Shown here: piece after piece, positions 7,813-61,986 of the stretch
Numbering within the stretch: the first letter of the stretch is position 1
Layout of the letters: each line of letters begins with the position of its first letter
From: Nanobdellota archaeon
Lineage (GTDB): Archaea; Nanobdellota; Nanobdellia; Pacearchaeales; GW2011-AR1
Length of the DNA stretch: 64,000 nucleotides
Direction: 5' to 3'
Assembly: GCA_038045945.1 (NCBI GenBank)
Contig: JBBSXC010000001.1
Location: forward strand, 52,592 to 116,591
Program-made: the position numbers and the translations under genes
The notes under the pieces: model-generated
Seen by the model: the letters and a program-made list of their open reading frames with translations, nothing else
Databases searched by the model: none
What the model was told of the DNA's origin: nothing

Positions 7813-8847
7813 CTAATAGTATTTTAGAAGCATTACTTTTCTTACTTCTTCCATAGTTTTGCTTGCTTCCTCCCTTGCTTTTTCTCCTCCTTCTCTTAGT
7901 ACTGTCTCTATTGTTTTGTCTGATATGCTGTCAAACCTGTTTCTGTATTCTTTGTATGTTGTTGACATTAATGGTGGTAGTTTTTGTTTGCATTCTCCAC
8001 ATCCTAGTATTGCTTGCCTACAACCGTAGTATACTTCAGCGAATTTTTCTTGGTTGTATATTCTGTGAAGGTCGTAAACGCTGCATTCGTCTGGGTTTCC
8101 TGCGACTTGCATACTTGTTCTTTTTGGGTCTATTCTCATCTTTGCAACTTTTTCTGATAATGTTTTTCCTGTGTCTTGTGGGCTTATCGTGTTTGCGTAA
8201 CTCTTTGACATTTTTCTTCCGTCTGTTCCTAGTATTCTTGGCGCGTTACTTGTCAGTATTTCTGGTACTGGGAATATTGGTCCGTATGTTGCGTTGAATC
8301 TTTTTGCTAATTCTTGGCATAGTTCTATGTGTGGTTTTTGGTCGTCTCCTACAGGTACATATTTTGCTTTGTGTACTAGTATGTCTGCTGCTTGTAATAA
8401 TGGGTATCCTAAAAACCCGTAACTTACTTGGTCTGCTTCTAATTTTTTTCTGTTATGTCCTTCTTCTTTCATTATTTGTACGTATTCTGTGAATGTTGGC
8501 ATTCTCTGAAGTCTTGCTACTGTGTTTAGCATTGATAACGCTACGTGTAACTCTGCGTGTTGTGGTACGTCTGATTGTACAAATATTGTTGATTTTTTTG
8601 GGTCTATTCCGAAAGCTAACCAGTCACGAACCATGTCATAAGTGTTTTTTCTTATTTCTTTTGATTCTGTGTTTGTTGTTAGTGCGTGCCAGTCTGCTAC
8701 GAAGAATTTGCATGCGTATTCTTCTTGTAATTGTAACCATTTTCTTAATACTCCTTCTATGTGCCCTATGTGTAGTCTTCCTGTTGGTCTCATCCCGGAT
8801 AATACTGTAGGTTTTAATTCATCATTAGTTTTTTCTTCTAAACTCAT
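7813..8847 (-). CDS. trpS: tryptophanyl-tRNA synthetase, bacterial type, with C-terminal Cys cluster
   Basis: LSGMRPTGRLHIGH (HIGH), GIDPKKSTIFVQS (near-identical to E. coli GIDPEKSTIFVQS), KMSKS; C-x20-C-x6-C-x2-C near C-terminus resembles [4Fe-4S] TrpRS motif. Confidence 0.9.
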   Translation of the reverse strand: MSLEEKTNDELKPTVLSGMRPTGRLHIGHIEGVLRKWLQLQEEYACKFFVADWHALTTNTESKEIRKNTYDMVRDWLAFGIDPKKSTIFVQSDVPQHAELHVALSMLNTVARLQRMPTFTEYVQIMKEEGHNRKKLEADQVSYGFLGYPLLQAADILVHKAKYVPVGDDQKPHIELCQELAKRFNATYGPIFPVPEILTSNAPRILGTDGRKMSKSYANTISPQDTGKTLSEKVAKMRIDPKRTSMQVAGNPDECSVYDLHRIYNQEKFAEVYYGCRQAILGCGECKQKLPPLMSTTYKEYRNRFDSISDKTIETVLREGGEKAREEASKTMEEVRKVMLLKYY

Positions 8848-25303: not shown

Positions 25304-25389
25304 ATTTATAAAGGTTATGCAGAGACTATGTGCTTTTGAGGAGATAAATCCTTAAAAGTGTCTTTTACTCTTTTTTTGTCGTGACTTGG

Positions 25390-26817
25390 ATGTTGTTTAA
25401 CTCTTTGCAGTTTTTGGTGTTTTTCTTAGTTGTTGTTTCATTATACTTTATTCTTCCTCATAAGTATCGTTGGTTTTTGTTGCTTGTTTCTAGTTACTAT
25501 TTTTATATGAGTTATCTTCCAGAGTACGTTCTTGTTTTGTTGTTTGCTACAGTCATGGACTATTTTTTGGCTATTAGGATAGCTTCAATTAAGGATTATA
25601 CTAAGAGAAAGTTATTCCTTGTTTTTAGTATTTTTTCTAATCTTGGTTTATTGTTTGTTTTTAAGTACTTTAATTTTTTTGGTGATTCTTTAAGGTCTCT
25701 TCTTAGTTTGGCTTCTTTGGATGTTAGTATTCCTTATAGCTCTTTGATTCTTCCTTTGGGTTTGTCTTTTCATACTTTTCAGAGTTTGGGTTATATGATC
25801 GAGGTTTATAGGGGTGAGATTAAACCTCAGAAGCATTTTGGTATTTTTGCTTTGTATATTGCTTTTTTTCCTCAGCTTGTTGCTGGGCCTATTGAGAGGG
25901 CTAAGAATCTTATTCCTCAGTTTTATGTGAGTCACAAATTTGATTTTTTGAGAATTGTTGGTGGTCTTAAGATTGTTCTTTGGGGTTTTTTCTTAAAGGC
26001 TGTTCTTGCTGACCGTTTGGCTGTTCCTGTTGATTATGCTTTCACTCATCCTTCTTGGCCTGGTGGTATTTCTCTTCTTTTGGCTACAATATTTTTTGCT
26101 TTCCAAATCTATGGCGATTTTGCTGGTTATACTTTCATTGCTATTGGTACTGCTAAAATTATGGGTTTTTCTTTAATGGATAATTTTCGCAGGCCTTACT
26201 TGTCTGGGTCTTTCGTTGATTTTTGGCGTAGGTGGCATATTTCTTTGTCTTCTTGGTTTAGGGATTACTTGTATATTCCTCTAGGTGGTAGTAAGAAGGG
26301 TTTTGTTAGGACTCTTGTTAATTTGTTTATTGTTTTCTTACTTAGTGGTTTGTGGCATGGTGCTGCTTGGACTTTCGTTATTTGGGGTATTATTCACGGA
26401 TTATTAGTAATTGGTAATACTTTAGTTATCAAGCTTAGTGGTAAGAAAAAGAAGGTTAAGCATAATTTTGGTACAGGCATTATTAATTTCTTTAAGTCTG
26501 TCTTTGTTTTCTCTTTTGTTTGTTTTGCTTGGATTTTTTTCCGTGCTAATTCTGTTTCTGATGCTTTAATAATCATTAAAAGGATTTTTTCTTGGACTGC
26601 TCCTAAAATTATTACTTTGAGTTTGACTTCTATTGATTTGTCTATTGCTGTTTTCTTAATTTTGTTTGTTATGATTGTTGATTTCTTTACTGAGAAAAGG
26701 TTTTTTGGCGATAAGACTCCTTGGTGGGCAGAATTATTGTTTTATCTTTTGGTTTTTTGGTTTATTATTATTTTAGGCTCCTTTGGGGGTAGGGAGTTTA
26801 TTTACTTCCAATTTTAG
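25390..26817 (+). CDS. MBOAT-family membrane O-acyltransferase (AlgI/DltB-like)
   Basis: FFPQLVAGPIERA and WRRWHISLSSWFRDYLYIPLGG (catalytic His region); ATG at 25390, ORF track starts at GTG 25381. Confidence 0.85.
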   Translation: MLFNSLQFLVFFLVVVSLYFILPHKYRWFLLLVSSYYFYMSYLPEYVLVLLFATVMDYFLAIRIASIKDYTKRKLFLVFSIFSNLGLLFVFKYFNFFGDSLRSLLSLASLDVSIPYSSLILPLGLSFHTFQSLGYMIEVYRGEIKPQKHFGIFALYIAFFPQLVAGPIERAKNLIPQFYVSHKFDFLRIVGGLKIVLWGFFLKAVLADRLAVPVDYAFTHPSWPGGISLLLATIFFAFQIYGDFAGYTFIAIGTAKIMGFSLMDNFRRPYLSGSFVDFWRRWHISLSSWFRDYLYIPLGGSKKGFVRTLVNLFIVFLLSGLWHGAAWTFVIWGIIHGLLVIGNTLVIKLSGKKKKVKHNFGTGIINFFKSVFVFSFVCFAWIFFRANSVSDALIIIKRIFSWTAPKIITLSLTSIDLSIAVFLILFVMIVDFFTEKRFFGDKTPWWAELLFYLLVFWFIIILGSFGGREFIYFQF

Positions 26818-26818
26818 T

Positions 26819-27979
26819 ATGGACAAAAGAATGTTTTTCTTATCGGTAATTGTTGTTTTGTTATTTTTAATGCCTTTGATTGTTCAGTTACTTTTGCCTT
26901 TTGGTTATGATAGTTTTCGCATTTGGGATTCTGTTTCTAGGGCTTTTATTAATTCTGATAAGCCTTTTTATTCTAATATTAACATTAGTAGGGTCGAGGT
27001 TGGTGATTTGGCTCATGGTACCGAGTTTGAGGTTAATAGGTCTGTTACTTGGTTTACTGATAGTAGAGGTTTTAGGACGCAAGAGTCTATTGATGATTTT
27101 TATGATGTTGTTATTCTTGGTGACTCTACTATTGCTGGTGCTGGTTTGAGTCAGGAGGATATGCTTTATTCTGTTATTAGTAATAAGACTGGTTTGAGGG
27201 TTTATTCTATGGGTCAGGTTGGTATTAATCGTTTTTTGAGTGATTCTCGTTTTGTTCTTAATCCTCCTAAAGTTTTGGTTTTTGGTGTTCTTGAGAGGAA
27301 TATGAATAATATTGATGTGTTGAATAAAAGTGTTATTGTGAGGAGTAAATACTTTTTTCCTATTAAGGAGAGGCTTGTTGATTTGCTTGATCGTTCTTTA
27401 AAACTTAATTTTATTAGAAAGAAGATTTCTCCTTCTATTTCTTCTGATAATTTAGCTGTTAATAATAGTACTAGGATGGTTTTTTATGATGTTTCTCTTA
27501 CTCAACAATTAACTAATTCTTTTGTTGTTACACAGTTGGTTGATGAAATTTCTTCTTATAATGATTTGTTAGCTGATCGTAATATTACTTTGATATTTTT
27601 GCCTGTTCCTAATAAGGAGACTGTTTATTATGATGATTTGCCTCAGAATTTTAAGAATAGGTATTCTAAGTCTAATTTTACTTCTCATATTTCTTTCTTA
27701 ACTAATAATGCTGGTGTTAAAACTGTTGATTTATTACCTATTTATAATAAAGAAAAATCTCAGAGTTTTTTGTATCAGTTGGATGATACTCATTGGAATA
27801 GGGATGGTGTTTTGATTGCTGCTGATGAGGTTATTAAACTGATGAATGTTTCCGACATTAATCACTCTGTTTTTAAGAAGCCTATTGTTAGTGATTTGGT
27901 TTTTGAGTTGTTAGTTTATGAGGCTTTTTTCTTACTTTTCGTTCTTGCTTTTCTTCTTAGAATTTTTGATCGTAAATGA
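26819..27979 (+). CDS. AlgJ/AlgX/DltD-like (DHHW-motif) periplasmic partner of MBOAT
   Basis: N-terminal TM, LDDTHWNRDG (D-x-H-W motif); ATG at 26819 immediately after MBOAT stop. Confidence 0.6.
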   Translation: MDKRMFFLSVIVVLLFLMPLIVQLLLPFGYDSFRIWDSVSRAFINSDKPFYSNINISRVEVGDLAHGTEFEVNRSVTWFTDSRGFRTQESIDDFYDVVILGDSTIAGAGLSQEDMLYSVISNKTGLRVYSMGQVGINRFLSDSRFVLNPPKVLVFGVLERNMNNIDVLNKSVIVRSKYFFPIKERLVDLLDRSLKLNFIRKKISPSISSDNLAVNNSTRMVFYDVSLTQQLTNSFVVTQLVDEISSYNDLLADRNITLIFLPVPNKETVYYDDLPQNFKNRYSKSNFTSHISFLTNNAGVKTVDLLPIYNKEKSQSFLYQLDDTHWNRDGVLIAADEVIKLMNVSDINHSVFKKPIVSDLVFELLVYEAFFLLFVLAFLLRIFDRK

Positions 27980-27982
27980 TTA

Positions 27983-28054
27983 TGGGTCCGGAGAGATTCG
28001 AACTCTCATCCTTCGCTCTGGAGGCGAAGAGACTAACCGTTATCCTACGGGCCC
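27983..28054 (-). tRNA. tRNA-Trp (anticodon CCA)
   Basis: acceptor GGGCCCG/CGGACCC (one C-A mismatch), anticodon stem TTCGC/GCGAA with loop CTCCAGA, T-arm GAGAG-TTCGAAT-CTCTC; no intron. Confidence 0.8.
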
Positions 28055-36506: not shown

Positions 36507-36579
36507 ACGCCCCCACCGGGATTCGAACCCGGGTTACCAGCTCGAAAGGCTAGTGTCCTTGGCCTCTAGACGATAAGGG
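36507..36579 (-). tRNA. tRNA-Glu (anticodon TTC)
   Basis: near-identical scaffold to tRNA-Glu(CTC); anticodon stem CTAGC/GCTGG with loop CTTTCGA. Confidence 0.8.
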
Positions 36580-36633
36580 CATTAAAGAGATAATAAGAAA
36601 TACGTTTTTAAAGGTTTGGAGTGATAAATTTTT

Positions 36634-37513: not shown

Positions 37514-37828
37514 TTATTTTTTGTGTGTTTCTCTTATTAGTTTAATTCCTGTTACTATTCCCCATATCCATGCTGCTGTTGGTGCTATAATTATTATTGG
37601 CACTCCTAGGGCTATTCCTACTCCGCTGATTATTAGCATTGTTCCTAAAAGTAGTCCTCCGAGGATTATTGCTATTTGCCATACTCCTTCTTTTATTTTT
37701 CCAGCTATTAGGCTTCCTAATCCTGGTAAGATTATTATGTTAAGTATTAGTGCTAGAATTGCTATGCTTTGTTCGTGATTAGCGTTGTTAATAGATTCTT
37801 TACCACCACTCTTTTTCTTTGCAGTCAT
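37514..37828 (-). CDS. small membrane protein
   Basis: Gly-rich TM helices. Confidence 0.45.
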   Translation of the reverse strand: MTAKKKSGGKESINNANHEQSIAILALILNIIILPGLGSLIAGKIKEGVWQIAIILGGLLLGTMLIISGVGIALGVPIIIIAPTAAWIWGIVTGIKLIRETHKK

Positions 37829-37903
37829 GAAAATTGTAAGATTTAGTAGTATTTAAATATTAATACTGAAGAAAAATTGTTATTTTTTTATAAGAAATTA
37901 GAA

Positions 37904-38041
37904 TGAGCCTATGCGGATTTGAACCGCAGACCTCCGGCTTTCTTAGCACGTATATGCCACTAAAGCATTAGTTCGCTCAAGTTGCTTGAGAGAACAACGT
38001 CTTATAAGACCGGCGTTCTAACCGGGCTGAACTATAGGCTC
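37904..38041 (-). tRNA. tRNA-Ile (anticodon TAT = UAU) containing a ~63-nt intron at the canonical 37/38 position
   Basis: acceptor GAGCCTA/TAGGCTC (perfect), D-arm GTTC-AGCCCGGTTA-GAAC, anticodon stem CCGGT...GCCGG with loop CTTATAA interrupted after position 37, T-arm TGCGG-TTCAAAT-CCGCA. Confidence 0.7.
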
Positions 38042-38223
38042 ATTCCCTAAAACCCATATCGCTACTAGCTAAAAAAGTGAAGTAAAAAACTCTATTTAAA
38101 GGTATTGTCCAGGTTCTTCACTTAACCTTTTCCCAATCCTCAATTCTGCCCTTAACAACTGCAAATAAGGTGTTATTTTCAGGTATGAAGAACTTTTTTG
38201 TTATTTTTTCTTTAAGGAAACCT

Positions 38224-38651: not shown

Positions 38652-39836
38652 ATGTTAATAGGACTTGTTGGTGCCCCTAATGTTGGTAAAAGTACTTTTT
38701 TTAAGGCTGCTACTTTAGCTGATGTTTTAATAGCTAATTATCCTTTTGCTACTATAAAGCCTAATCATGGAGTAGCTTATGTTCGTATTGATTGTATTGA
38801 TAAAGAATTAGGCGCTAAGTGTAATCCTCGTGAGGGTTATTGTGTTGATGGTCAACGTTTTGTTCCTTGTGAATTAATGGATGTTGCTGGTTTAGTTCCT
38901 GATGCTTCTAAGGGTAAGGGTTTGGGTAATCAGTTTTTAGATGATTTGCGTCAGGCTGATGCTTTTATTCAAATTGTTGATTTGTCTGGTAAGAATAATG
39001 AAGAAGGTAAGGCTGTTGATGATTATTATCCTGGTAACAGTATTGCTTTTTTGGAGAAGGAGTTAGATTTGTGGTATTTGGGAATTCTCAAAAAGGTTTG
39101 GCCTGTTTTTGTTCGTACTGCTGAGATGCAAAAGCAGAATTTTGCTCAGGCTGTAACAAAACAGTTTTCAGGGCTGAAAGTAACTGAGGATGATGTTAAG
39201 AAAGTTTTGTTAAAGACGGGTTTAGACCCCCTTCATCCAACTAAGTGGTCTGATGATGAATTAATGAAGTTTTCAAACATGCTTCGGTCTTTGACTAAGC
39301 CTATGATTATTGTTGGTAACAAGATTGATTCAGCTAAGGGTAAGGAGAATTATGATAAGATTAAGAAGGATTTTTCTTATGAGGTTATTCCAGTATCAGC
39401 TGAGAGTGAATTAGCTTTGCGTGAAGCATCAAAGAATGGAATAATAGATTATGTTCCTGGCGATAAGGACTTTATTATAAAAGATGAGTCTAAACTTACT
39501 GATAAGCAAAGAATGGCTCTAAAGTTTGTTAAAGAAAAAATTCTTGACGTTTATGGCTCGACCGGTGTTCAAAAAGTTCTTAACATGGTAGTTTTTGATT
39601 TGTTAAAGTATATCGCTGTTTTCCCTGCTGGTACAAAAAAGTTAGCTGATAGTAAAGGAAATATTTTACCAGATTGTTATTTGATTCCTTCAGGTAGTAC
39701 TGCTTTAGATTTTGCTTTTAAGCTTCATACTGATTTAGGTAAAAACTTTATTAGAGCAATTGACGTTAGAACTAAACAAACTGTTGGTAAAGATCACAAA
39801 CTTAAAAATCGTGATGGTATTGAGATAGTAACTTAA
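38652..39836 (+). CDS. Obg-family P-loop GTPase/ATPase (YchF/OLA1-like) with C-terminal TGS domain
   Basis: GLVGAPNVGKSTFF (G1), DVAGLV (G3), NKID (G4), C-terminal TGS-like segment. Confidence 0.75.
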   Translation: MLIGLVGAPNVGKSTFFKAATLADVLIANYPFATIKPNHGVAYVRIDCIDKELGAKCNPREGYCVDGQRFVPCELMDVAGLVPDASKGKGLGNQFLDDLRQADAFIQIVDLSGKNNEEGKAVDDYYPGNSIAFLEKELDLWYLGILKKVWPVFVRTAEMQKQNFAQAVTKQFSGLKVTEDDVKKVLLKTGLDPLHPTKWSDDELMKFSNMLRSLTKPMIIVGNKIDSAKGKENYDKIKKDFSYEVIPVSAESELALREASKNGIIDYVPGDKDFIIKDESKLTDKQRMALKFVKEKILDVYGSTGVQKVLNMVVFDLLKYIAVFPAGTKKLADSKGNILPDCYLIPSGSTALDFAFKLHTDLGKNFIRAIDVRTKQTVGKDHKLKNRDGIEIVT

Positions 39837-44002: not shown

Positions 44003-45145
44003 ATGACTGTTTTTATGGTAAAGGGTGAATCAATGAAGGTTACTCCTTATGAAGCAAAAGGGGAAATAGACTATGATCAATTAGTAAAACAGTTCGGTGT
44101 TGAGAGGATTGATCAAGATTTAATGAAGAGGATAGAAAAGAAGGCAGGTGAGCTACATTTCATGCTTCGCAGAGGAGTCTTTTTTGCGCATAGAGACTTA
44201 AAATTTGTACTTGAAGAGTACGATAAGGGAAACAAGTTTTATCTTTACACTGGGAGAGCTCCAAGTGGACCAATACATTTAGGGCATCTACAACCTTGGA
44301 TTTTTACTAAGTGGTTACAGGATACTTTTGGTGTAGAGTTATGGTTTCAATTCCCTGATGAAGAAAAATTTTTGTTTAAACCAGAGATGAGTTTTGAGGA
44401 TGGACAAAAATATCTTAATGATAATATGTTGGACATTATAGCTTTAGGTTTTGATCCTAAAAAGACTCACTTCTTGATAGATACTAAGCATGCAAATGCT
44501 ATGTACAAAGAAGCATGTAAAGTAGCAAAAAAGATTACTTTTAACATGGTAAGGTCATCATTCGGATTTGATGAAAGTGATAATATAGGATTAATATTTT
44601 ACACTAGTATGCAAGCTGTTCCAGCATTTTTGCCTTCGGTAATCGCAAAAAAGAATATTCCTTGTTTGATTCCTCACGCAGTTGACCAAGACGTCCACTT
44701 TAGGTTAACTAGGGATATTTTGCCAAAACTAGGTTATTATAAACCTGCAAGTATTCAATGCGTATTTTTGCCGCCTTTACAGGGGGTTGCTGGAAAGATG
44801 AGTTCATCACAAAGCAGTGAAGCAATACTAACTACTGATACACCAAAGGAAGTTGAGCGTAAGATTAACAGGTACGCTTTTAGTGGGGGAAGAGATACCA
44901 TTGAGGAGCATCGTAAACTTGGAGGAAATCCTGATGTTGATGTTTCTTACCAATATTTGAGGATGCTATTAGAAGATGATGATAAGAAACTAAAAAAGAT
45001 TCATGATGATTATAAGAGTGGAAAGATGACAACAGGCGAATTAAAGAAATATACTATTGATAAAATTAATTCTTTTTTAGCAGTTCATCAAAAGAAGCGC
45101 GAAGAAGCAAAAAAGGTTGTTGACAAATTTATTTGGAAAGAATGA
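44003..45145 (+). CDS. trpS: tryptophanyl-tRNA synthetase, archaeal/eukaryotic type
   Basis: YLYTGRAPSGPIHLGHLQPWIFTKWLQDTFGVELWFQFPDEEKF and AFSGGRDTIEEHRKLGGNPDVDVSYQYL are near-collinear with human WARS catalytic core; KMSSS. Confidence 0.9.
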   Translation: MTVFMVKGESMKVTPYEAKGEIDYDQLVKQFGVERIDQDLMKRIEKKAGELHFMLRRGVFFAHRDLKFVLEEYDKGNKFYLYTGRAPSGPIHLGHLQPWIFTKWLQDTFGVELWFQFPDEEKFLFKPEMSFEDGQKYLNDNMLDIIALGFDPKKTHFLIDTKHANAMYKEACKVAKKITFNMVRSSFGFDESDNIGLIFYTSMQAVPAFLPSVIAKKNIPCLIPHAVDQDVHFRLTRDILPKLGYYKPASIQCVFLPPLQGVAGKMSSSQSSEAILTTDTPKEVERKINRYAFSGGRDTIEEHRKLGGNPDVDVSYQYLRMLLEDDDKKLKKIHDDYKSGKMTTGELKKYTIDKINSFLAVHQKKREEAKKVVDKFIWKE

Positions 45146-46917: not shown

Positions 46918-48216
46918 ATGGCTGATTTTAAGTTTAATTTTGGTGATTTTGTTAAGATTAAGGATAATAATGAATTTTTAGAGGGCGTTATACTTGAGAG
47001 TCCTGATAGCGAGTTTTATTTGTTGAAGCTTAATAGTGGTTATAATATTGGTGTTAGAAAAGAGAATATTGTTTCAATAGAGGTCGTTAATAGGAGGGTT
47101 GTGGAAAAAGTTGTTGATGTTAAGAAAAGTGTTGATAGTGGTCTTCCTAAAGTTGATATTATTATGACAGGTGGCACTATTAGTAGTCGTCTTGATTATA
47201 GAACTGGTGGTGTTACTAGTCTTACAAGCCCAGAGGACTTTTTTCGTTTTTACCCAGAAATTTTTAAGATTGCGAGCGTTAATAGGGTTGTTGTTCCTTT
47301 CATGAAGTTGTCAGAGAACATGGAGATTAAAGATTGGAAGATTATTGGTGAAGAAGTTGAGAAGAGTATGAATAATCCTGAGGTTGATGGTGTTATTGTT
47401 ACTCATGGTACTGATATTTTACATTATACTTCTTCTGCTTTATCTTTTTTCTTTCCTAAGCCTAATAAGCCTGTAGTTTTGACTTTTAGTCAGAAGAGTA
47501 CTGATAGGGCTTCTTCTGATGCTTCTTTGAATTTGCAGTGTGCTGCTAGACTTGCAGTATCAAATATTGCCGAGGTTGTTATTGTTGGTCATTCTAGTAC
47601 TAATGATGATTTTTGTTATGCTCTTCTGGGAACTAAGGTTAGGAAGATGCATTCTACTTCTAGAGATGCTTTCAAACCTGTGAATATTGATCCTTTAGTT
47701 AAGGTTTATTCTGATAGGATTGAGAAGTTGAATTATTTTAGAGAGAGACCTTCTAAGTCTGATAAGAGTGAAAAATTAAAGGGCGATATATTTATTAGTG
47801 AAAAGGTTGGCCTAATAAAGTTTTATCCTGGTCAAAGTTTTGAGATACTTGATTATTATTCTAAGATTTGTGAAGCTTTAATAATTGAAGGTGTTGGCGT
47901 TGGTAATGTTCCTGTTGAGGGTAATAATTCTTGGATTCCTTCTATTAAGAAGGCTATTAATAATGGTATGATGATTTTTATGACTTCTCAGACTGTTTTT
48001 GGTAGGACAGAGCCTTATGTTTATTCTACGGCTAGAGATTTGCAAAAAGCTGGCGTGATTTTTTTAGAGGATATGTTGAGTGAGGCTGCTTTTGTTAAGC
48101 TTTCTTGGGTTCTTGGTAATAAGAATTGGAATAAGGATAAAGAAACTATTAAGAAGAAGATGCTTGAGAATGTTAGTGGTGAGATTAATAATAGATTGCA
48201 GTTAAGGGGGGATTAG
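46918..48216 (+). CDS. gatD: Glu-tRNA(Gln) amidotransferase subunit D
   Basis: asparaginase-type DIIMTGGTISS motif, VVTHGTDIL, 432 aa with N-terminal extra domain typical of GatD. Confidence 0.85.
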   Translation: MADFKFNFGDFVKIKDNNEFLEGVILESPDSEFYLLKLNSGYNIGVRKENIVSIEVVNRRVVEKVVDVKKSVDSGLPKVDIIMTGGTISSRLDYRTGGVTSLTSPEDFFRFYPEIFKIASVNRVVVPFMKLSENMEIKDWKIIGEEVEKSMNNPEVDGVIVTHGTDILHYTSSALSFFFPKPNKPVVLTFSQKSTDRASSDASLNLQCAARLAVSNIAEVVIVGHSSTNDDFCYALLGTKVRKMHSTSRDAFKPVNIDPLVKVYSDRIEKLNYFRERPSKSDKSEKLKGDIFISEKVGLIKFYPGQSFEILDYYSKICEALIIEGVGVGNVPVEGNNSWIPSIKKAINNGMMIFMTSQTVFGRTEPYVYSTARDLQKAGVIFLEDMLSEAAFVKLSWVLGNKNWNKDKETIKKKMLENVSGEINNRLQLRGD

Positions 48217-50759: not shown

Positions 50760-52271
50760 ATGTCTAAAAAAGTTCCGAAGGATAAGAAGGTTTTAGAAGA
50801 AGCTGAGGAGAAAAAAGTTTTTGATAATGATGACTTAGTTCTTGATATGAAGTGTGGTATTGAGATTCATCAGCAGCTTAATACTAATAAATTGTTTTGC
50901 AATTGTCCTTCTGTTCTTCGTGCGGATAATCCTGATTTTAAAGTTATGAGGAAGTTACACTTGGTTGCTGGTGAGGGTGGCGTTGTTGATGCTGCTGCTG
51001 TTCATGAATCCAGTAAAGAAAAAACTTTTTTTTATGAGGGTTATAAGGATAATACTTGTCTTGTTGATTTGGATGAGGAGCCCCCTCATGATATTAATAA
51101 GGATGCTCTTAAGACTGGAGTACAAGTTGCACTCATGCTTAATTGTGAAATTTTACCTTTAACTCAGATTATGCGTAAGACTGTTATTGATGGTAGTAAT
51201 ACTAGCGGTTTTCAAAGGACTGTTCTTATTGCTAGAAATGGTTATGTTCAGACTGATAGCGGCAAGGTTAGGATTGATTCTGTTTGTTTAGAGGAGGATT
51301 CTTCAAGAACTATTAGCGAGGATAAGGGTGTTAAGATTTATCGTCTTGATAGGTTAGGCATTCCGCTTGTTGAGATTGCTACAGCTCCTGATATTAAGTC
51401 TCCAGAACAGGCTAAGGAAGTTGCTTTGTTTATTGGTGATATTTTGCGTTCTTCTAATGTTAAGCGAGGTATCGGTACTATTCGTCAGGATGTTAATGTT
51501 TCTGCTTGTGTTAATGGTTTGTGGGGTAGTCGTGTTGAGATTAAGGGTGTTCAGGATCCTTCACTTATAGAAAAATCTGCGAGTATTGAGGTTGATAGAC
51601 AGAAGACTTTGATTCTTGAGGGAAAATCTGTTGGTGAGGTAAGGAAAGCTAATGAGGATGGTACTAGTGATTTTTTAAGGCCTATGCCAGGTGCTGCTAG
51701 GATGTATCCTGAAACTGATCTTCCTCTTTTAAGGATTACTAGAGAAGAAATTAATGATTCTAAGAAGACTCTTCCTAAGCTTAAGTCTGCTATTAAGGGT
51801 GAACTTAGTAGTGCTGGTCTTAGTGATGAGATGATTAAGCTCGTTCTTGATAATAATAAGATTTCTGATTTGCAAGAATTACTTAAGGTTTATCAGAATC
51901 CTAATCTTATTGCTAAAATGCTTGTTTTGTGGCCTAGTGAAATTAGTAAGAAGACTAACGAAAAGTTAGATTCTTTGGATAAGAAGTTAACTCTTGATGT
52001 TTTAGAAACTGTTCTTTTTGCTATTAATACTAAGAAGCTTGATGAGAGTAACGCTAAAGAAGCCATTAGTAGGATTGTTTCGGGTATTCCTGTTAAGGAT
52101 GCTATAATTTTCCATAAGACTGAGAACTTGGAAGAGTTGATTATGAAAATTGTTAATTCTAAGCCAGGTCTTTCTAAGCAAGGTTATATGGGTTTGGTTA
52201 TGGCTCAGCTTAGGGGTAAGGCTTCTGGTAAAGAAGTTATGGATGTTCTTAACACTTTAATAAAAGATTAA
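50760..52271 (+). CDS. gatE: Glu-tRNA(Gln) amidotransferase subunit E
   Basis: MKCGIEIHQQLNTNKLFCNCPS (GatE-type G-x-EIHQQL...KLFC), AspRS-like insertion, C-terminal GatB/YqeY-like tail. Confidence 0.8.
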   Translation: MSKKVPKDKKVLEEAEEKKVFDNDDLVLDMKCGIEIHQQLNTNKLFCNCPSVLRADNPDFKVMRKLHLVAGEGGVVDAAAVHESSKEKTFFYEGYKDNTCLVDLDEEPPHDINKDALKTGVQVALMLNCEILPLTQIMRKTVIDGSNTSGFQRTVLIARNGYVQTDSGKVRIDSVCLEEDSSRTISEDKGVKIYRLDRLGIPLVEIATAPDIKSPEQAKEVALFIGDILRSSNVKRGIGTIRQDVNVSACVNGLWGSRVEIKGVQDPSLIEKSASIEVDRQKTLILEGKSVGEVRKANEDGTSDFLRPMPGAARMYPETDLPLLRITREEINDSKKTLPKLKSAIKGELSSAGLSDEMIKLVLDNNKISDLQELLKVYQNPNLIAKMLVLWPSEISKKTNEKLDSLDKKLTLDVLETVLFAINTKKLDESNAKEAISRIVSGIPVKDAIIFHKTENLEELIMKIVNSKPGLSKQGYMGLVMAQLRGKASGKEVMDVLNTLIKD

Positions 52272-53412: not shown

Positions 53413-54687
53413 ATGGAAAGAAAAATGATTAGCGATTTGAAGGAGGGCGAGCATTCTTTGATTAAGGGTTGGGTTCATGAAATTCGTGATTTGTCTAAGA
53501 TGAAGTTTATTCTACTTAGGGATTCTTCGGGTATTGTCCAGTGCATTATTAAGGATGATAAGTTGATGAAGGATTCTTCTAGCATTAGTTTGGAGAGCGT
53601 TATTGAGATTGAAGGAGCGGTGAATAAGGCTTCTGTTAAGGCTGATCTTGCTCGTAAAGATGTTGAACTTCATGCTAAGTCTATTAAGATTCTTAGTTTG
53701 GCTGAAACTTTACCTATTCAAGTTAATGAAAAAACAATAACTACTGAATTACCAACAAGGCTTGATCATCGTTCTTTAGATGTTAGGAAGCCTAAAATTT
53801 CAGCTATTTTTAAGATTCAGAGTGAAATAGCTAATTCTTTCAGAAAGTTTTTTTATAAGAATGGTTTTACTGAGATTCAACCACCTTTTATTATTGGAGC
53901 AGCAAGCGAGGGTGGAAGTGAAGTTTTTGAGGTTAAATATTTTGATAAGAAGGCTTACTTAGCTCAAAGTCCTCAATTGTATAAACAAATGATGGCTTGT
54001 GCTTTTGAGAAAGTTTTTGCTTTAGGCCCTGCTTGGAGAGCAGAGAAGCATAATACTACTAGACACATTAATGAGATAAGGCAAATGGATGTAGAAGTAG
54101 CCTTCACCGACCAAATGCAAATAATGAAGTTGCAAGAGGAGGTTTTACAATTCATAATTCAGAACGTTAAAGAAAGATGTTCAAGAGAACTAGAAATATT
54201 GGGAAGAAGTGATATAAAAGCTCCTAAGGGTGTATACTTACATTATGAGGATGCTATTAAGAAGTCTGGTGGAAAAATTGGTGAGGATTTTACTCCTGAA
54301 CAGGAAAGGAAGCTTTGTGACATGTACCCTGGGGACATAGTGTTTACTCATTCTTGGCCTACAAGCATTAAAGTTTTTTATATAATGCCTAAGGATGGTA
54401 AGAAGAATGCTACTGAAAGTTGTGGTTTTGATTCTTTGTATGGCGGCGTTGAGATTTCTAGTGGTGGTCAACGTATTCACATTCCAGAATTATTAATTGA
54501 TAGGATTAAAGCTAAGGGTTTGAACCCTAAAGATTTTAAAACTTATATTGATAGTTTCCGTTACGGTGCTCCACCTCATAGCGGTTGGGCTTTAGGTCTT
54601 GAAAGACTTACCCAAATGATTTGCGGTCTTGATAATATTAAAGAAGCAACATTATTCCCTAGAGACAGGGATAGGTTGACACCTTAG
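53413..54687 (+). CDS. aspS: aspartyl-tRNA synthetase, archaeal type
   Basis: OB-fold N-terminus, class IIb motifs FRAEKHNTTRHINE, GGVEISSGGQRIH, C-terminal FPRDRDRLTP. Confidence 0.85.
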   Translation: MERKMISDLKEGEHSLIKGWVHEIRDLSKMKFILLRDSSGIVQCIIKDDKLMKDSSSISLESVIEIEGAVNKASVKADLARKDVELHAKSIKILSLAETLPIQVNEKTITTELPTRLDHRSLDVRKPKISAIFKIQSEIANSFRKFFYKNGFTEIQPPFIIGAASEGGSEVFEVKYFDKKAYLAQSPQLYKQMMACAFEKVFALGPAWRAEKHNTTRHINEIRQMDVEVAFTDQMQIMKLQEEVLQFIIQNVKERCSRELEILGRSDIKAPKGVYLHYEDAIKKSGGKIGEDFTPEQERKLCDMYPGDIVFTHSWPTSIKVFYIMPKDGKKNATESCGFDSLYGGVEISSGGQRIHIPELLIDRIKAKGLNPKDFKTYIDSFRYGAPPHSGWALGLERLTQMICGLDNIKEATLFPRDRDRLTP

Positions 54688-54691
54688 AACC

Positions 54692-56026
54692 ATGGTTAAA
54701 AAAGTAGAAAAAGTTTCTGTTGATACTCACAGCGAATCATTCATTAGTATTTCTGATGCTATCAAGCAAGGTTCTGGTCGTGTTTCTATTAGAGGTTGGG
54801 TTTATCGTGAGAGGGATGGAAAAGAATTAAGATTCATAGTCCTAAGAGACTCAAGTAATATAATACAGTGCGTGTTGAAAAAGGAAAAGTTTGAAAAACA
54901 ATGGGGAGAGATAAGTAAAATAGGAATTGAAAGCTCACTAGAAATAGTTGGGGAAATAAAAGCAGACGCTCGAGCACCAACAGGTTACGAAATATCAGCA
55001 GAAAAAATAATAATAGTGCAAATAGCTGAGGATTTCCCCATTAACAAAGATTTGAACGAGGAGTTGCTTGGAGACAGAAGGCATTTGTGGCTTCGTAGTA
55101 GAAAGATGACTTCTATTATGAAGATTAGAAGCAGGTATATACAGGCTAGAGAAGCATTCTTTCATAAAGAGGGATTTTATCGTTTTGATACTCCTATACT
55201 TCAACCAACACAAAGCGAAGGTGGAAGTACAGTTTTTGAAGTAAAATATTATGATAAAAAAACGTTTTTAGCCCAAACATGGCAGTTATACGGCGAATCA
55301 GCAATTTTCGCTCTTGAAAAAGTTTACAATATGGGTCCAACTTTCAGGGCTGAGAAGAGTAATACTTCAAGACATTTATCTGAATTTTGGATGGCAGAAG
55401 TAGAAGTGGCCTGGTGGGGTCTTAAAGAAATATCTGAGTTTGCAAAAAAAGAATTAAAACATTGTATAAGCATAGTGGTAAAAGAATGTGAGGAAGAGTT
55501 TAAGATATTAGGAGTGGATGCAAAAAAATTGTTAGAGATGACAAAGAAAGAGTGGCCTACAATTAAGTATCGTGATGCACTAAAATTAATAAAAGAAAAA
55601 GATGGGATGACAGTACCGTTCGGCAAGGATTTAAGGACAATTGAAGAACAAACAATAATGAAACATTTTGATACTCCTGTTGTTGTTACTCATTATCCTA
55701 AAGAAATAATGGCTTTTTATAAGCCGAGTGACCCAAAAAGTCCTGATGAAGCATTATGCTTTGATATGTTAGCTCCACAGATAGGCATAGAGATAGTTGG
55801 AGGAAGCCAAAGAGACTTGAATGTTGAGGAGATGTCAAAAAAACTAAAAGCTGATGGTGAAGACCCAAAAAATTATCAGTTTTATTTTGATACTAGGAAG
55901 TATGGAAGTGTGCCTCATTCAGGATACGGAGTAGGAATCGAGAGGGTAATACAGTGGATTTGTGGTCTTGAAAGTATTAAGGATGCTATTGCCTTCCCTA
56001 GGACTATGAATAGGACAACTCCTTAA
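54692..56026 (+). CDS. asnS: asparaginyl-tRNA synthetase
   Basis: FRAEKSNTSRHLSEFWMAEVEVAW (AsnRS-specific SNTSRHL.EFWM), C-terminal FPRTMNRTTP. Confidence 0.85.
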   Translation: MVKKVEKVSVDTHSESFISISDAIKQGSGRVSIRGWVYRERDGKELRFIVLRDSSNIIQCVLKKEKFEKQWGEISKIGIESSLEIVGEIKADARAPTGYEISAEKIIIVQIAEDFPINKDLNEELLGDRRHLWLRSRKMTSIMKIRSRYIQAREAFFHKEGFYRFDTPILQPTQSEGGSTVFEVKYYDKKTFLAQTWQLYGESAIFALEKVYNMGPTFRAEKSNTSRHLSEFWMAEVEVAWWGLKEISEFAKKELKHCISIVVKECEEEFKILGVDAKKLLEMTKKEWPTIKYRDALKLIKEKDGMTVPFGKDLRTIEEQTIMKHFDTPVVVTHYPKEIMAFYKPSDPKSPDEALCFDMLAPQIGIEIVGGSQRDLNVEEMSKKLKADGEDPKNYQFYFDTRKYGSVPHSGYGVGIERVIQWICGLESIKDAIAFPRTMNRTTP

Positions 56027-60864: not shown

Positions 60865-61986
60865 TTAGGAGGATACTATTCCACCACCTATTACTTCGTA
60901 GCTTTTTGGTTTGTATATTACGCTTGCTTGCCCTTGACTTATTCCTGTTGCTCCTTCTTTTAGTGTTATTGTGAAACTTTTCTTTTTTGTTTCGTATTTC
61001 ATTTTTGCTGGTAATAATTCTCCTACTTTTCTTATTCTAACGTCCACCGTCATTTTTTTCTTTTTTGTTTCCTTAATGTCTTCTGTTATTAGGTGTAAAT
61101 TTTTTATTGTGAAGTATTTTTTCAGTAATATTGGGTGTCCTTTTGGTGCTGCTACTATTATGTTTTTCTTTACGTCTTTTTTTGCTACGTACCACCTTTG
61201 TGAATTAATCCTGTCGCGCACGCCAGGATTAATGTCAATACCAAAACGCGGGCCTATTCTTTGTCCTATTGTGTAGTAGAACACTCCGTCATGTTCTCCT
61301 ATGATTTTTCCTTCTGGCGAGAGTATTTTTCCTTTTTTTTGTTTTATTTTCTTTTTTAAGAATTCTTTCAGATTTACCTTTCCTATGAAGCATATTCCTT
61401 TTGTTGATTCTCTGTCATGGTTTGGTAATTCTAGTTTTTTTGCTATGTTTCTTATTTCTTTTTTTGTGTATTCTCCTATTGGGAATAGTGTGTGGCTTAA
61501 GTCTTCTTGACTTAGTCTGTATAGGAAGTATGATTGATCTTTTAGGTCTTCTTTTCCTCTAAGTAAATAATACTTGTTTTTTTTCTTTTTTATTCTTGCG
61601 TAATGTCCCGTTACTATGTACTGGCACCCTAATTTTTTTGCTGCTTTCCATAATAATGGGAATTTTACTAGTTGGTTGCAGTCTACGTCAGGGTTTGGTG
61701 TTATTCCTTCTTTGTATTGTTTGAACATTTCTTCTACTACACTTTTGCGGTATTCTTTTTCGAAATCTAGGGTTATTAGCGGTAGGTTTAGTTTTGCTGT
61801 TACACGTCTTGCCATTCTTCTGTCTTCGCGCCAGGAGCATTCTCCCATATCGTTTTTTGTGTCACTCCAATTTTTCATGAATGCACAAATAACTTCGTGT
61901 CCTTCTTTATTCATTAAGTATGCTGCAATACTTGAGTCTACTCCACCCGATAACGCTACTAGTACTTTAGTTTTTTTCTTTTCCAT
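60865..61986 (-). CDS. mnmA: tRNA-specific 2-thiouridylase MnmA (bacterial type)
   Basis: KVLVALSGGVDSSIAAYLM PP-loop (SGGxDS), catalytic Cys contexts, 373 aa. Confidence 0.85.
   Translation of the reverse strand: MEKKKTKVLVALSGGVDSSIAAYLMNKEGHEVICAFMKNWSDTKNDMGECSWREDRRMARRVTAKLNLPLITLDFEKEYRKSVVEEMFKQYKEGITPNPDVDCNQLVKFPLLWKAAKKLGCQYIVTGHYARIKKKKNKYYLLRGKEDLKDQSYFLYRLSQEDLSHTLFPIGEYTKKEIRNIAKKLELPNHDRESTKGICFIGKVNLKEFLKKKIKQKKGKILSPEGKIIGEHDGVFYYTIGQRIGPRFGIDINPGVRDRINSQRWYVAKKDVKKNIIVAAPKGHPILLKKYFTIKNLHLITEDIKETKKKKMTVDVRIRKVGELLPAKMKYETKKKSFTITLKEGATGISQGQASVIYKPKSYEVIGGGIVSS

Follow-up and report, generated by a model that had tools for sequence, protein, structure and literature searches.

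A tRNA-Ile(UAU) gene with a bulge-helix-bulge intron in a DPANN archaeon, and the spread of its relatives among DPANN genomes

The 64,000 nucleotides (nt) analysed here, which we call the window, are part of a Nanobdellota contig (JBBSXC010000001.1). At positions 37904-38041 on the (-) strand, the strand that also carries every part of the gene described below, they contain a complete 138-nt intron-containing gene for tRNA-Ile(UAU), whose mature product is 75 nt long without CCA. We read it as a functional tRNA-Ile(UAU) (tRNA-Ile3) gene of a DPANN archaeon of the Woesearchaeota/Pacearchaeota type, and put the probability of this reading at roughly 0.88. The gene carries one intron, at the canonical position between nucleotides 37 and 38, for which a bulge-helix-bulge (BHB) structure can be drawn, and related genes with an intron at the same place were found in nearly all of the DPANN genomes in which we recognised this tRNA.

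The gene matched the Rfam tRNA model RF00005 with 54.9 bits (gathering score 29, model positions 1-71, E=4.4e-9 for the 64-kb window), and the alignment contains a 64-position insertion 3' of the anticodon. ARAGORN in intron mode (-i) called tRNA-Ile(tat) with a 63-nt intron, given as [i(41,63)], between ...ttata and agccg.... In default mode the same program called the six other tRNAs of the window and missed this one, which is a point for annotation, i.e. bacterial-mode default tRNA finders miss the tRNA-Ile(UAU) gene. When positions 37940-38002 (63 nt) were excised, a 75-nt class I cloverleaf was obtained in which the acceptor stem (GAGCCUA/UAGGCUC) has seven Watson-Crick pairs, the D stem (GUUC/GAAC) has four base pairs (bp), the anticodon stem (CCGGU/GCCGG) has five including U31-G39, the sole non-Watson-Crick pair among the cloverleaf stems, and the T arm (UGCGG-UUCAAAU-CCGCA) has a 5-bp stem. 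The anticodon loop (CUUAUAA) is 7 nt long and has U33 and, at 37, a purine; the variable loop (AGGUC) is 5 nt long. The discriminator A73 and A37, the site of N6-threonylcarbamoyladenosine (t6A), are both present, as they are in isoleucine tRNAs, and CCA is not encoded. The precursor fold was compared with shuffled sequences (z=-4.64), and 0/200 shuffles were equally stable. An earlier note on this DNA had placed a cleanly folding tRNA with a UAU anticodon at 37904-38041, and this is borne out by RF00005, by ARAGORN -i and by the pairing of all stems. Since approximately 190 orthologous loci exist elsewhere, the gene is not a chance match.

The 39-nt 5' exon (38003-38041) carries tRNA positions 1-37, i.e. 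the 5' strand of the acceptor stem, the D arm, the 5' strand of the anticodon stem and C32 U33 U34 A35 U36 A37, as read from the sequence and the cmscan alignment. The anticodon U34 A35 U36 (38004-38006), which is UAU and reads AUA, was located from the sequence, cmscan and ARAGORN -i. It lies directly 3' of CCGGU-CU inside the 5' exon, and an intron between 37 and 38 is therefore unable to change it. The 36-nt 3' exon (37904-37939) carries A38, the GCCGG strand of the anticodon stem, the variable loop AGGUC, the T arm, the 3' strand of the acceptor stem and A73.

The intron (37940-38002, 63 nt) was placed between A37 and A38 by ARAGORN -i, by the BHB model and by comparison with the family, which agrees with the canonical 37/38 intron of about 63 nt that the earlier note had described. 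The junction can be shifted by one A with no effect on the mature sequence. Folding of the exon-intron junction had been suggested as a way of finding a BHB motif, and a canonical helix-bulge-helix-bulge-helix (hBHBh') structure of -44.5 kcal/mol was obtained; it was built by hand, imposed as a constraint and evaluated in ViennaRNA. Its outer helix h is the 5-bp anticodon stem. The central 4-bp helix joins C32 U33 U34 A35 (38005-38008) to G, A, A and U at intron positions -3 to -6, this 3' strand (UAAG, 37942-37945) being placed by the BHB model and the family alignment. The constrained fold has two 3-nt bulges, one formed by U36, A37 and A+1 (38002-38004) and holding the 5' splice site, the other formed by A-2, A-1 and A38 (37939-37941) and holding the 3' splice site, and in the BHB model both splice sites follow nucleotide 2 of the respective bulge. 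The inner helix h' of the constrained fold joins GACG (intron +2 to +5, 37998-38001) to CGU(G)C (intron -11 to -7, 37946-37950) through the pairs G+2:C-7, A+3:U-9, C+4:G-10 and G+5:C-11.

The same structure can be followed through the family. When 144 distinct introns were aligned with their ends anchored, pairing in the four-pair central helix was seen in 81% of cells, vs 23-48% in slid controls in which the 3' partner had been moved by one to three columns. The family inner pair +3:-8 covaries (A-U 65, G-C 19, G-U 8, U-A 3), and at +2:-7 a G-C or G-U pair occurs in 85% of introns. Both ends of the intron are kept from phylum to phylum (5' WGRC and 3' YUARGAA) and match the needs of the BHB and the inner helix. 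One intron subfamily, AGGCC...GGCGTARA (22/162 introns), has A and not G opposite C32 and misfits the canonical BHB register. Its loci come from Aenigmatarchaeota-titled records and unassigned metagenome-assembled genomes (L016, L029, L035, L038, L041, L044, L055, L067, L068 and L107, and further L124, L138, L145, L149, L159, L177, L183, L202, L204 and L205).

Some observations weigh against our reading of the gene and its intron. The unconstrained minimum-free-energy fold (-52.2 kcal/mol) contains neither cloverleaf nor BHB, the inner helix is interrupted by one bulged G, and the identity of the mature tRNA to the few available DPANN tRNAs is 57/75 for Val-UAC and 52/75 for Ile-GAU, the latter figure coming from a single distinct DPANN tRNA-Ile(GAU) sequence of a different phylum. 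The BHB also did not form spontaneously in the fold constrained to the cloverleaf alone (-46.4 kcal/mol), so that imposing it costs 1.9 kcal/mol. Pre-tRNAs with long introns commonly fail to show the cloverleaf or BHB in an unconstrained fold. Because overall similarity is not Ile-specific, it is from the anticodon, the class I shape and A73 that isoleucine is assigned.

Because A and GA are repeated at the junctions, a second pair of splice sites, at 34/35, is arithmetically possible and would give the anticodon UGA and a gene that does not encode tRNA-Ile. ARAGORN -i does make this choice, i.e. tRNA-Ser(tga) with ATA...CTAA removed instead, for 37 of the tRNA-Ile(UAU) orthologues (L015, the closest relative of the window gene, as well as L017, L024, L028, L031 and 32 others). 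We nevertheless take it to be almost certainly wrong. For the window gene itself the program chooses Ile(tat). Serine tRNAs must have a long variable arm, whereas the variable loop here has 5 nt, and while a canonical BHB can be placed at 37/38, none is possible around 34/35. The last three intron bases also vary among the orthologues (GAA, GAG, GCC, GCG, GTT, AAA and others), and splicing at 34/35 would leave a single gene family with the anticodons UGA, UGC, UGU or UAA and sometimes with a pyrimidine at 37, whereas splicing at 37/38 gives an invariant CUUAUAA loop across orthologues. On the variable loop, the BHB geometry and the inconsistent anticodons, tRNA-Ser(tga) with a 34/35 intron was rejected. 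The earlier note had itself named a shift of the intron boundaries that moved the anticodon as the outcome that would overturn it; with the 34/35 splice sites examined and set aside, the anticodon stays UAU. The Ser(tga) calls represent a systematic mis-annotation risk in DPANN genomes.

We searched for relatives of the gene in metagenomes with a pattern made up of GCCGGTCTTATA, a gap of 40-70 nt and AGCCGGAGGTC (the anticodon arm), and found 91 loci, in approximately 88 of which the tRNA is evidently the same one and has an intron of 40-66 nt. The scan of GTDB, which used one genome per species and allowed introns of 0-60 nt, gave 112 loci, i.e. 108 tRNA-Ile(UAU) genes and four chance matches in unrelated sequence, about the expected number. 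An intron of 18-58 nt at 37/38 was present in 106 of the 108 species representatives; the two genes without an anticodon-loop intron (L139 and L173, from Aenigmarchaeota LH_S4/S6) have an interrupted T arm instead. The 108 records are titled Woese-, Pace-, Nano-, Aenigmat-, Micr- or Undinarchaeota, Nanohaloarchaea, Altiarchaeota or 'Nanobdellati', or bear placeholder labels. The pattern fixes the 23-nt anticodon arm plus variable loop, so that these numbers count the lineages sharing that arm and not all DPANN, and lineages with a different anticodon stem are missed. Introns are less usual in the other tRNAs of the same loci, at least 73 of 116 distinct sequences being intronless, and all of the six other window tRNAs lack one. 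A 16-mer pattern taken from an exon matched viral contigs 11 times, nearly always by chance, one odd phage tRNA being among the matches.

These results point to tRNA-Ile(UAU) with a 37/38 intron as a DPANN-wide trait, built on one conserved 23-nt anticodon arm plus variable loop, that extends beyond Nanoarchaeum, Korarchaeum and the archaeal Richmond Mine acidophilic nanoorganisms (ARMAN). The statement in the earlier note that a UAU tRNA-Ile is known only in a few lineages does not survive the 108 GTDB species representatives, nor the report from ARMAN in 2011 (PMC3239211). The gene had also been called a useful phylogenetic marker, which holds in so far as it points to DPANN as a whole and fails within DPANN, where it does not discriminate. 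The literature searched for a DPANN-wide report of tRNA-Ile(UAU) or of TiaS loss, or for near-universal retention of the intron, gave only the ARMAN paper (PMC3239211), which does not in itself prove novelty. The window gene is an ordinary member of an already described type, having all of the testable defining features of a tRNA and of a canonical BHB intron.

The family includes 22 acceptor-stem variants and 43 T-arm variants. Contiguous 5' and 3' halves were found in only 94 of the 196 tRNA-Ile(UAU) genes, and A73 was present in 94/94 of these. In at least 11 genes (L051, L111, L119, L134, L136, L140, L153, L165, L179, L196 and L206) the 5' part with the acceptor and D stems lies 44-64 nt upstream of the anticodon arm, vs the usual 26-27 nt. 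The displacement implies a putative second intron of approximately 20-35 nt in the D loop, often ending ...GGCAA/TTAGAGC. In other genes, i.e. those with an interrupted T arm (L016, L021, L023, L038, L108, L112, L139, L173 and others), divergence sets in directly after GGTTCAAA, so that, as far as can be read from the letters, either a split gene or an intron in the T loop is implied.

Of the 687 isoleucine codons in 20 window genes, 299 (44%) are AUA, i.e. 34 per 1000 and more than AUG, and the host therefore needs an AUA decoder. The usual archaeal route to AUA is tRNA-Ile2(CAU) modified to agmatidine by TiaS. We propose that in this host the route would be replaced by tRNA-Ile(UAU), as follows. 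Transcription would yield a precursor, 138 nt long or longer, with a short leader, and the 3' end of the intron (UAAG) would pair with C32-A35 to form the hBHBh' structure. The archaeal splicing endonuclease (EndA) would then cut both 3-nt bulges, after A37 and before A38, and the exons would be joined by an RtcB-type ligase before CCA addition. The mature 75-nt tRNA would be charged by isoleucyl-tRNA synthetase (IleRS) and would read AUA, in which case it would probably carry 44% of isoleucine decoding in the host genome. Splicing by EndA and RtcB, charging by IleRS and the absence of TiaS are predicted on the basis of what is established for archaeal tRNAs and of the ARMAN-2 case (PMC3239211); a U34 modification that blocks the reading of AUG, if there is one, is likewise a prediction. 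In the window, a CAU anticodon occurs in 0/7 tRNAs and TiaS had no match in Pfam or NCBIfam among the approximately 30 larger open reading frames (ORFs), results that cover 64 kb and have no power for the whole genome.

A view limited to 64 kb leaves room for tiaS and a tRNA-Ile2(CAU) gene elsewhere, and AUA could then be read by the TiaS-modified tRNA while the gene described here would be a decaying or redundant pseudogene, e.g. the remnant of a mobile element. We think this extremely unlikely, given that every stem of the tRNA is perfect, that its exons are 100% identical to those of L015 (75/75) though the protein of the neighbouring GTPase gene is only 89% identical, that a promoter-like box is conserved in L015, that chromosomal synteny is kept in 39 loci, and that all archaea previously reported to have tRNA-Ile(UAU) are without TiaS (PMC3239211, PMC8450103). 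The intron, by comparison, is identical to that of L015 at 45/63 aligned positions with 8 nt of indels, and this difference from the exons is the pattern of selection on the mature tRNA. The promoter-like box is TTTAAATA (38093-38100), a candidate archaeal TATA box read from the sequence, which ends 51 nt upstream of the mature 5' end and is kept as the TATA-like TTTATATA at the same position in L015; its role as a promoter element is that of a candidate. The T-rich 3' trailer TTCTAATTTCTTAT (37890-37903), which is similar in L015, may be the region of termination and RNase Z processing.

The functional tRNA-Ile(UAU) gene that we favour has close parallels in ARMAN-2, -4 and -5 (Micrarchaeota/Parvarchaeota; Fujishima et al. 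2011, PMC3239211), which are likewise DPANN and share with it the encoded UAU anticodon, the 37/38 intron, the hBHBh' structure and the proposed replacement of TiaS and tRNA-Ile2(CAU). The ARMAN-2 pre-tRNA-Ile(UAU) has a 25-nt 37/38 intron in a strict hBHBh' that is cleaved by its own EndA in vitro, and the ARMAN genomes are without TiaS and tRNA-Ile(CAU) (PMC3239211). The window gene differs in its intron length (63 nt vs 25 nt) and in its host, which is of the Woese/Pace type, and EndA cleavage and TiaS absence, which were shown for ARMAN, are here predicted. The tRNA-Ile3(UAU) of Nanoarchaeum equitans and that of Korarchaeum cryptofilum are also archaeal UAU tRNAs that make tRNA-Ile2(CAU) unnecessary (PMC8450103, PMC6000648, PMC2237900), and the Korarchaeum gene carries an intron (PMC6000648), but both belong to other host lineages.

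Outside the archaea, the eukaryotic nuclear tRNA-Ile(UAU) of yeast and Metazoa resembles the window gene in its anticodon, in a 37/38 intron of comparable length that pairs with the anticodon, and in the retention of that intron across a wide clade. The yeast intron is approximately 60 nt long. In eukaryotes the intron is needed for Pus1 to form pseudouridine at 34/36 (PMC11408192) and the splice sites are found by a ruler mechanism, whereas here recognition is through the BHB. Mycoplasma mobile tRNA-Ile(UAU) (PMC3575796) likewise takes the place of the modified-C strategy, its genome being reduced, AT-rich and without the C34-modifying enzyme, but it is bacterial, intronless, unmodified at U34 (as summarised in PMC3895270) and of independent origin.

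The intron of the window gene contains two hairpins besides the BHB elements. In the constrained fold hairpin A (37971-37995) has an outer stem GUUC/GAAC enclosing an extra helix CUCAAG-CAA-CUUGAG; hairpin B (37954-37968; AUGCU-UUAGU-GGCAU) is variable or absent in relatives. At the site of hairpin A, Woese/Pace-type relatives have a simple hairpin of 6-9 bp with a freely covarying stem and a loop that is often GUUA, and some of their introns contain a second small hairpin. L015 has a different inserted helix there, CCC-GAAA-GGG. A hairpin with a near-constant core UUC-GUUA-GAA on a freely covarying stem recurs in the family: T[TC]C[AG]TTAG[AG] was present in 20 of 162 distinct introns (L019, L037, L048, L060, L072, L076, L089, L105, L106, L155, L160, L171, L193, L207 and others), and in the window gene and L015 the GUUA-type loop is swapped for the extra helix.

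The earlier note had suggested that an intron of this length could carry a small functional RNA; a box C/D guide, or a stable circular RNA with a role of its own, would be examples. The intron of Haloferax pre-tRNA-Trp, likewise a long archaeal 37/38 tRNA intron, has C/D boxes and guides 2'-O-methylation. The window intron does have two well-formed hairpins and is longer than most of its relatives, the median being 35 nt in GTDB (where the pattern allowed 0-60 nt) and 46 nt in the metagenomes (where it allowed 40-70 nt), with 63 nt or more in 6 of 76 metagenome introns. Unlike the Haloferax intron, however, it has no C box (RUGAUGA) or D box (CUGA), nor an ACA motif, and a C/D box pair was present in 0/162 related introns. 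Rfam at E<=1 over 37800-38150 found the tRNA alone and no snoRNA, and away from the BHB ends the intron is poorly conserved even in L015, with extra helices that differ between the two. A separate small RNA in the intron is therefore unsupported, and we consider it very unlikely. The extra length looks like lineage-specific helix growth rather than a payload, and the two hairpins are most likely a structural scaffold that presents the BHB.

By analogy with Pus1, the near-obligatory intron offers a concrete, testable lead on the question (PMC3895270) of how an archaeal isoleucine tRNA with U34 avoids reading AUG. Eukaryotic tRNA-Ile(UAU) has the anticodon ΨAΨ (Ψ, pseudouridine), and both pseudouridines need the intron (PMC11408192). 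The DPANN intron might similarly be kept for anticodon modification, i.e. for a Pus1-like pseudouridylation of U34/U36, or to shield U34 from a default wobble modification such as 5-cyanomethyluridine (cnm5U). The contrast between its presence in 106/108 GTDB representatives and the intronless state of at least 73/116 other tRNAs and of 6/6 in the window is in keeping with this idea, as is the pairing of the intron with U33, U34 and A35 in every case. Yeast tRNA-Ile(UAU) acquires its pseudouridines at 34 and 36 only with the intron, which also prevents 5-carbamoylmethyluridine (ncm5U) at 34 (PMC11408192), and conservation of Ile-UAU introns extends across Metazoa (10.1101/2025.06.17.660180). 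When a tRNA-Ile of a haloarchaeon is mutated to UAU, it gains cnm5U34 and misreads AUG (PMC3895270), and special handling of U34 is therefore needed; in Mycoplasma mobile, where U34 is unmodified, the tRNA and the ribosome are apparently co-adapted (as summarised in PMC3895270).

However, the BHB demands pairing with the anticodon loop in any case, which makes that pairing unspecific as evidence, and the two Aenigmarchaeota genes (L139 and L173) manage without an anticodon-loop intron. DPANN tRNAs are in general rich in introns, and vertical inheritance without a mechanism of intron loss would give the same pattern. Retention of the intron for anticodon modification is thus a tentative idea that we think improbable on present evidence. 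The broader proposal, that accurate decoding of AUA depends mechanistically on the DPANN intron where TiaS is absent, and that this dependence would be the archaeal counterpart, possibly the ancestor, of the eukaryotic requirement, is speculative to a similar degree and may well be mistaken.

The window has a G+C content of 32-36%, about 34% overall. By exact protein matches it belongs to a 445-kb contig of ENA sample ERZ1292629 (Hain_H43_01um_R1_3), a name that points to groundwater and a 0.1-µm size fraction. It encodes GatD and GatE, subunits of the archaeal Glu-tRNA(Gln) amidotransferase that pass the NCBIfam equivalog cut-offs, and the host is therefore archaeal. The tRNA-Ile(UAU) gene lies 610 bp upstream of, and divergent from, a gene for a YchF-like (YGR210-type) GTPase at 38652-39836 (+). 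This GTPase adjoins the orthologous tRNA in 39 other loci (25 divergent, 14 co-directional), with the tRNA always on the 5' side of the GTPase gene and a gap that is often only 35-170 bp; the linked loci include L015, L025, L036, L050, L052, L060, L063, L076, L082, L105, L110, L129, L137 and L147. In GTDB, the neighbouring GTPases closest to that of the window (55-65% identity) come from records with Woesearchaeota, Pacearchaeota or Nanoarchaeota in their titles, and together with GatD and GatE these labels support the DPANN-like host that had been suggested from the sequence.

A tRNA-Glu(UUC) gene (36507-36581, (-)) lies 1.3 kb from tRNA-Ile(UAU), and ARAGORN found tRNA-Glu(ttc) in the flanks of approximately 60 related loci (50 distinct sequences); the pairing of the two tRNAs seems to be conserved. 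The tRNA-Trp(CCA) gene (27983-28054, (-)) is intronless and 72 nt long, the intron of tRNA-Ile(UAU) being the sole tRNA intron in the 64 kb. In other archaea tRNA-Trp is among the commonest intron-containing tRNAs. There are two tryptophanyl-tRNA synthetase (TrpRS) genes 35 kb apart, at 7813-8847 (-) and 44003-45145 (+). One of the two proteins scores best on the general/bacterial trpS model TIGR00233 (304 bits) and the other on PRK12285-type models (512 bits), which we take to represent the archaeal type.

The genes for GatD, GatE, aspartyl-tRNA synthetase (AspRS) and asparaginyl-tRNA synthetase (AsnRS) are clustered within 9 kb (46918-48216, 50760-52271, 53413-54687 and 54692-56026, all (+)), and the AspRS of this cluster scores best on the non-discriminating model. 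With histidyl-tRNA synthetase (HisRS), the two TrpRS genes and seven tRNA genes also present, the window is unusually translation-dense. A 373-amino-acid ORF at 60865-61986 (-) scores 384.7 bits on the NCBIfam equivalog model of MnmA, the bacterial-type tRNA 2-thiouridine(34) synthase, and so exceeds its cut-off of 284. Archaea normally use NcsA/Ncs6 to make 2-thiouridine at position 34 (s2U34). The ORF thus seems to encode, in a DPANN genome, a wobble-uridine enzyme of bacterial type, and given A35 a canonical MnmA is unlikely to act on tRNA-Ile(UAU). Elsewhere in the window, a membrane-bound O-acyltransferase (MBOAT) protein encoded at 25381-26817 (+) resembles DltB (E=2.4e-44, under the equivalog cut-off), and its gene is overlapped by an ORF with an AlgX-type SGNH domain at 26783-27979 (+); the two make up, on an archaeal contig, a polymer acylation pair in the bacterial style.

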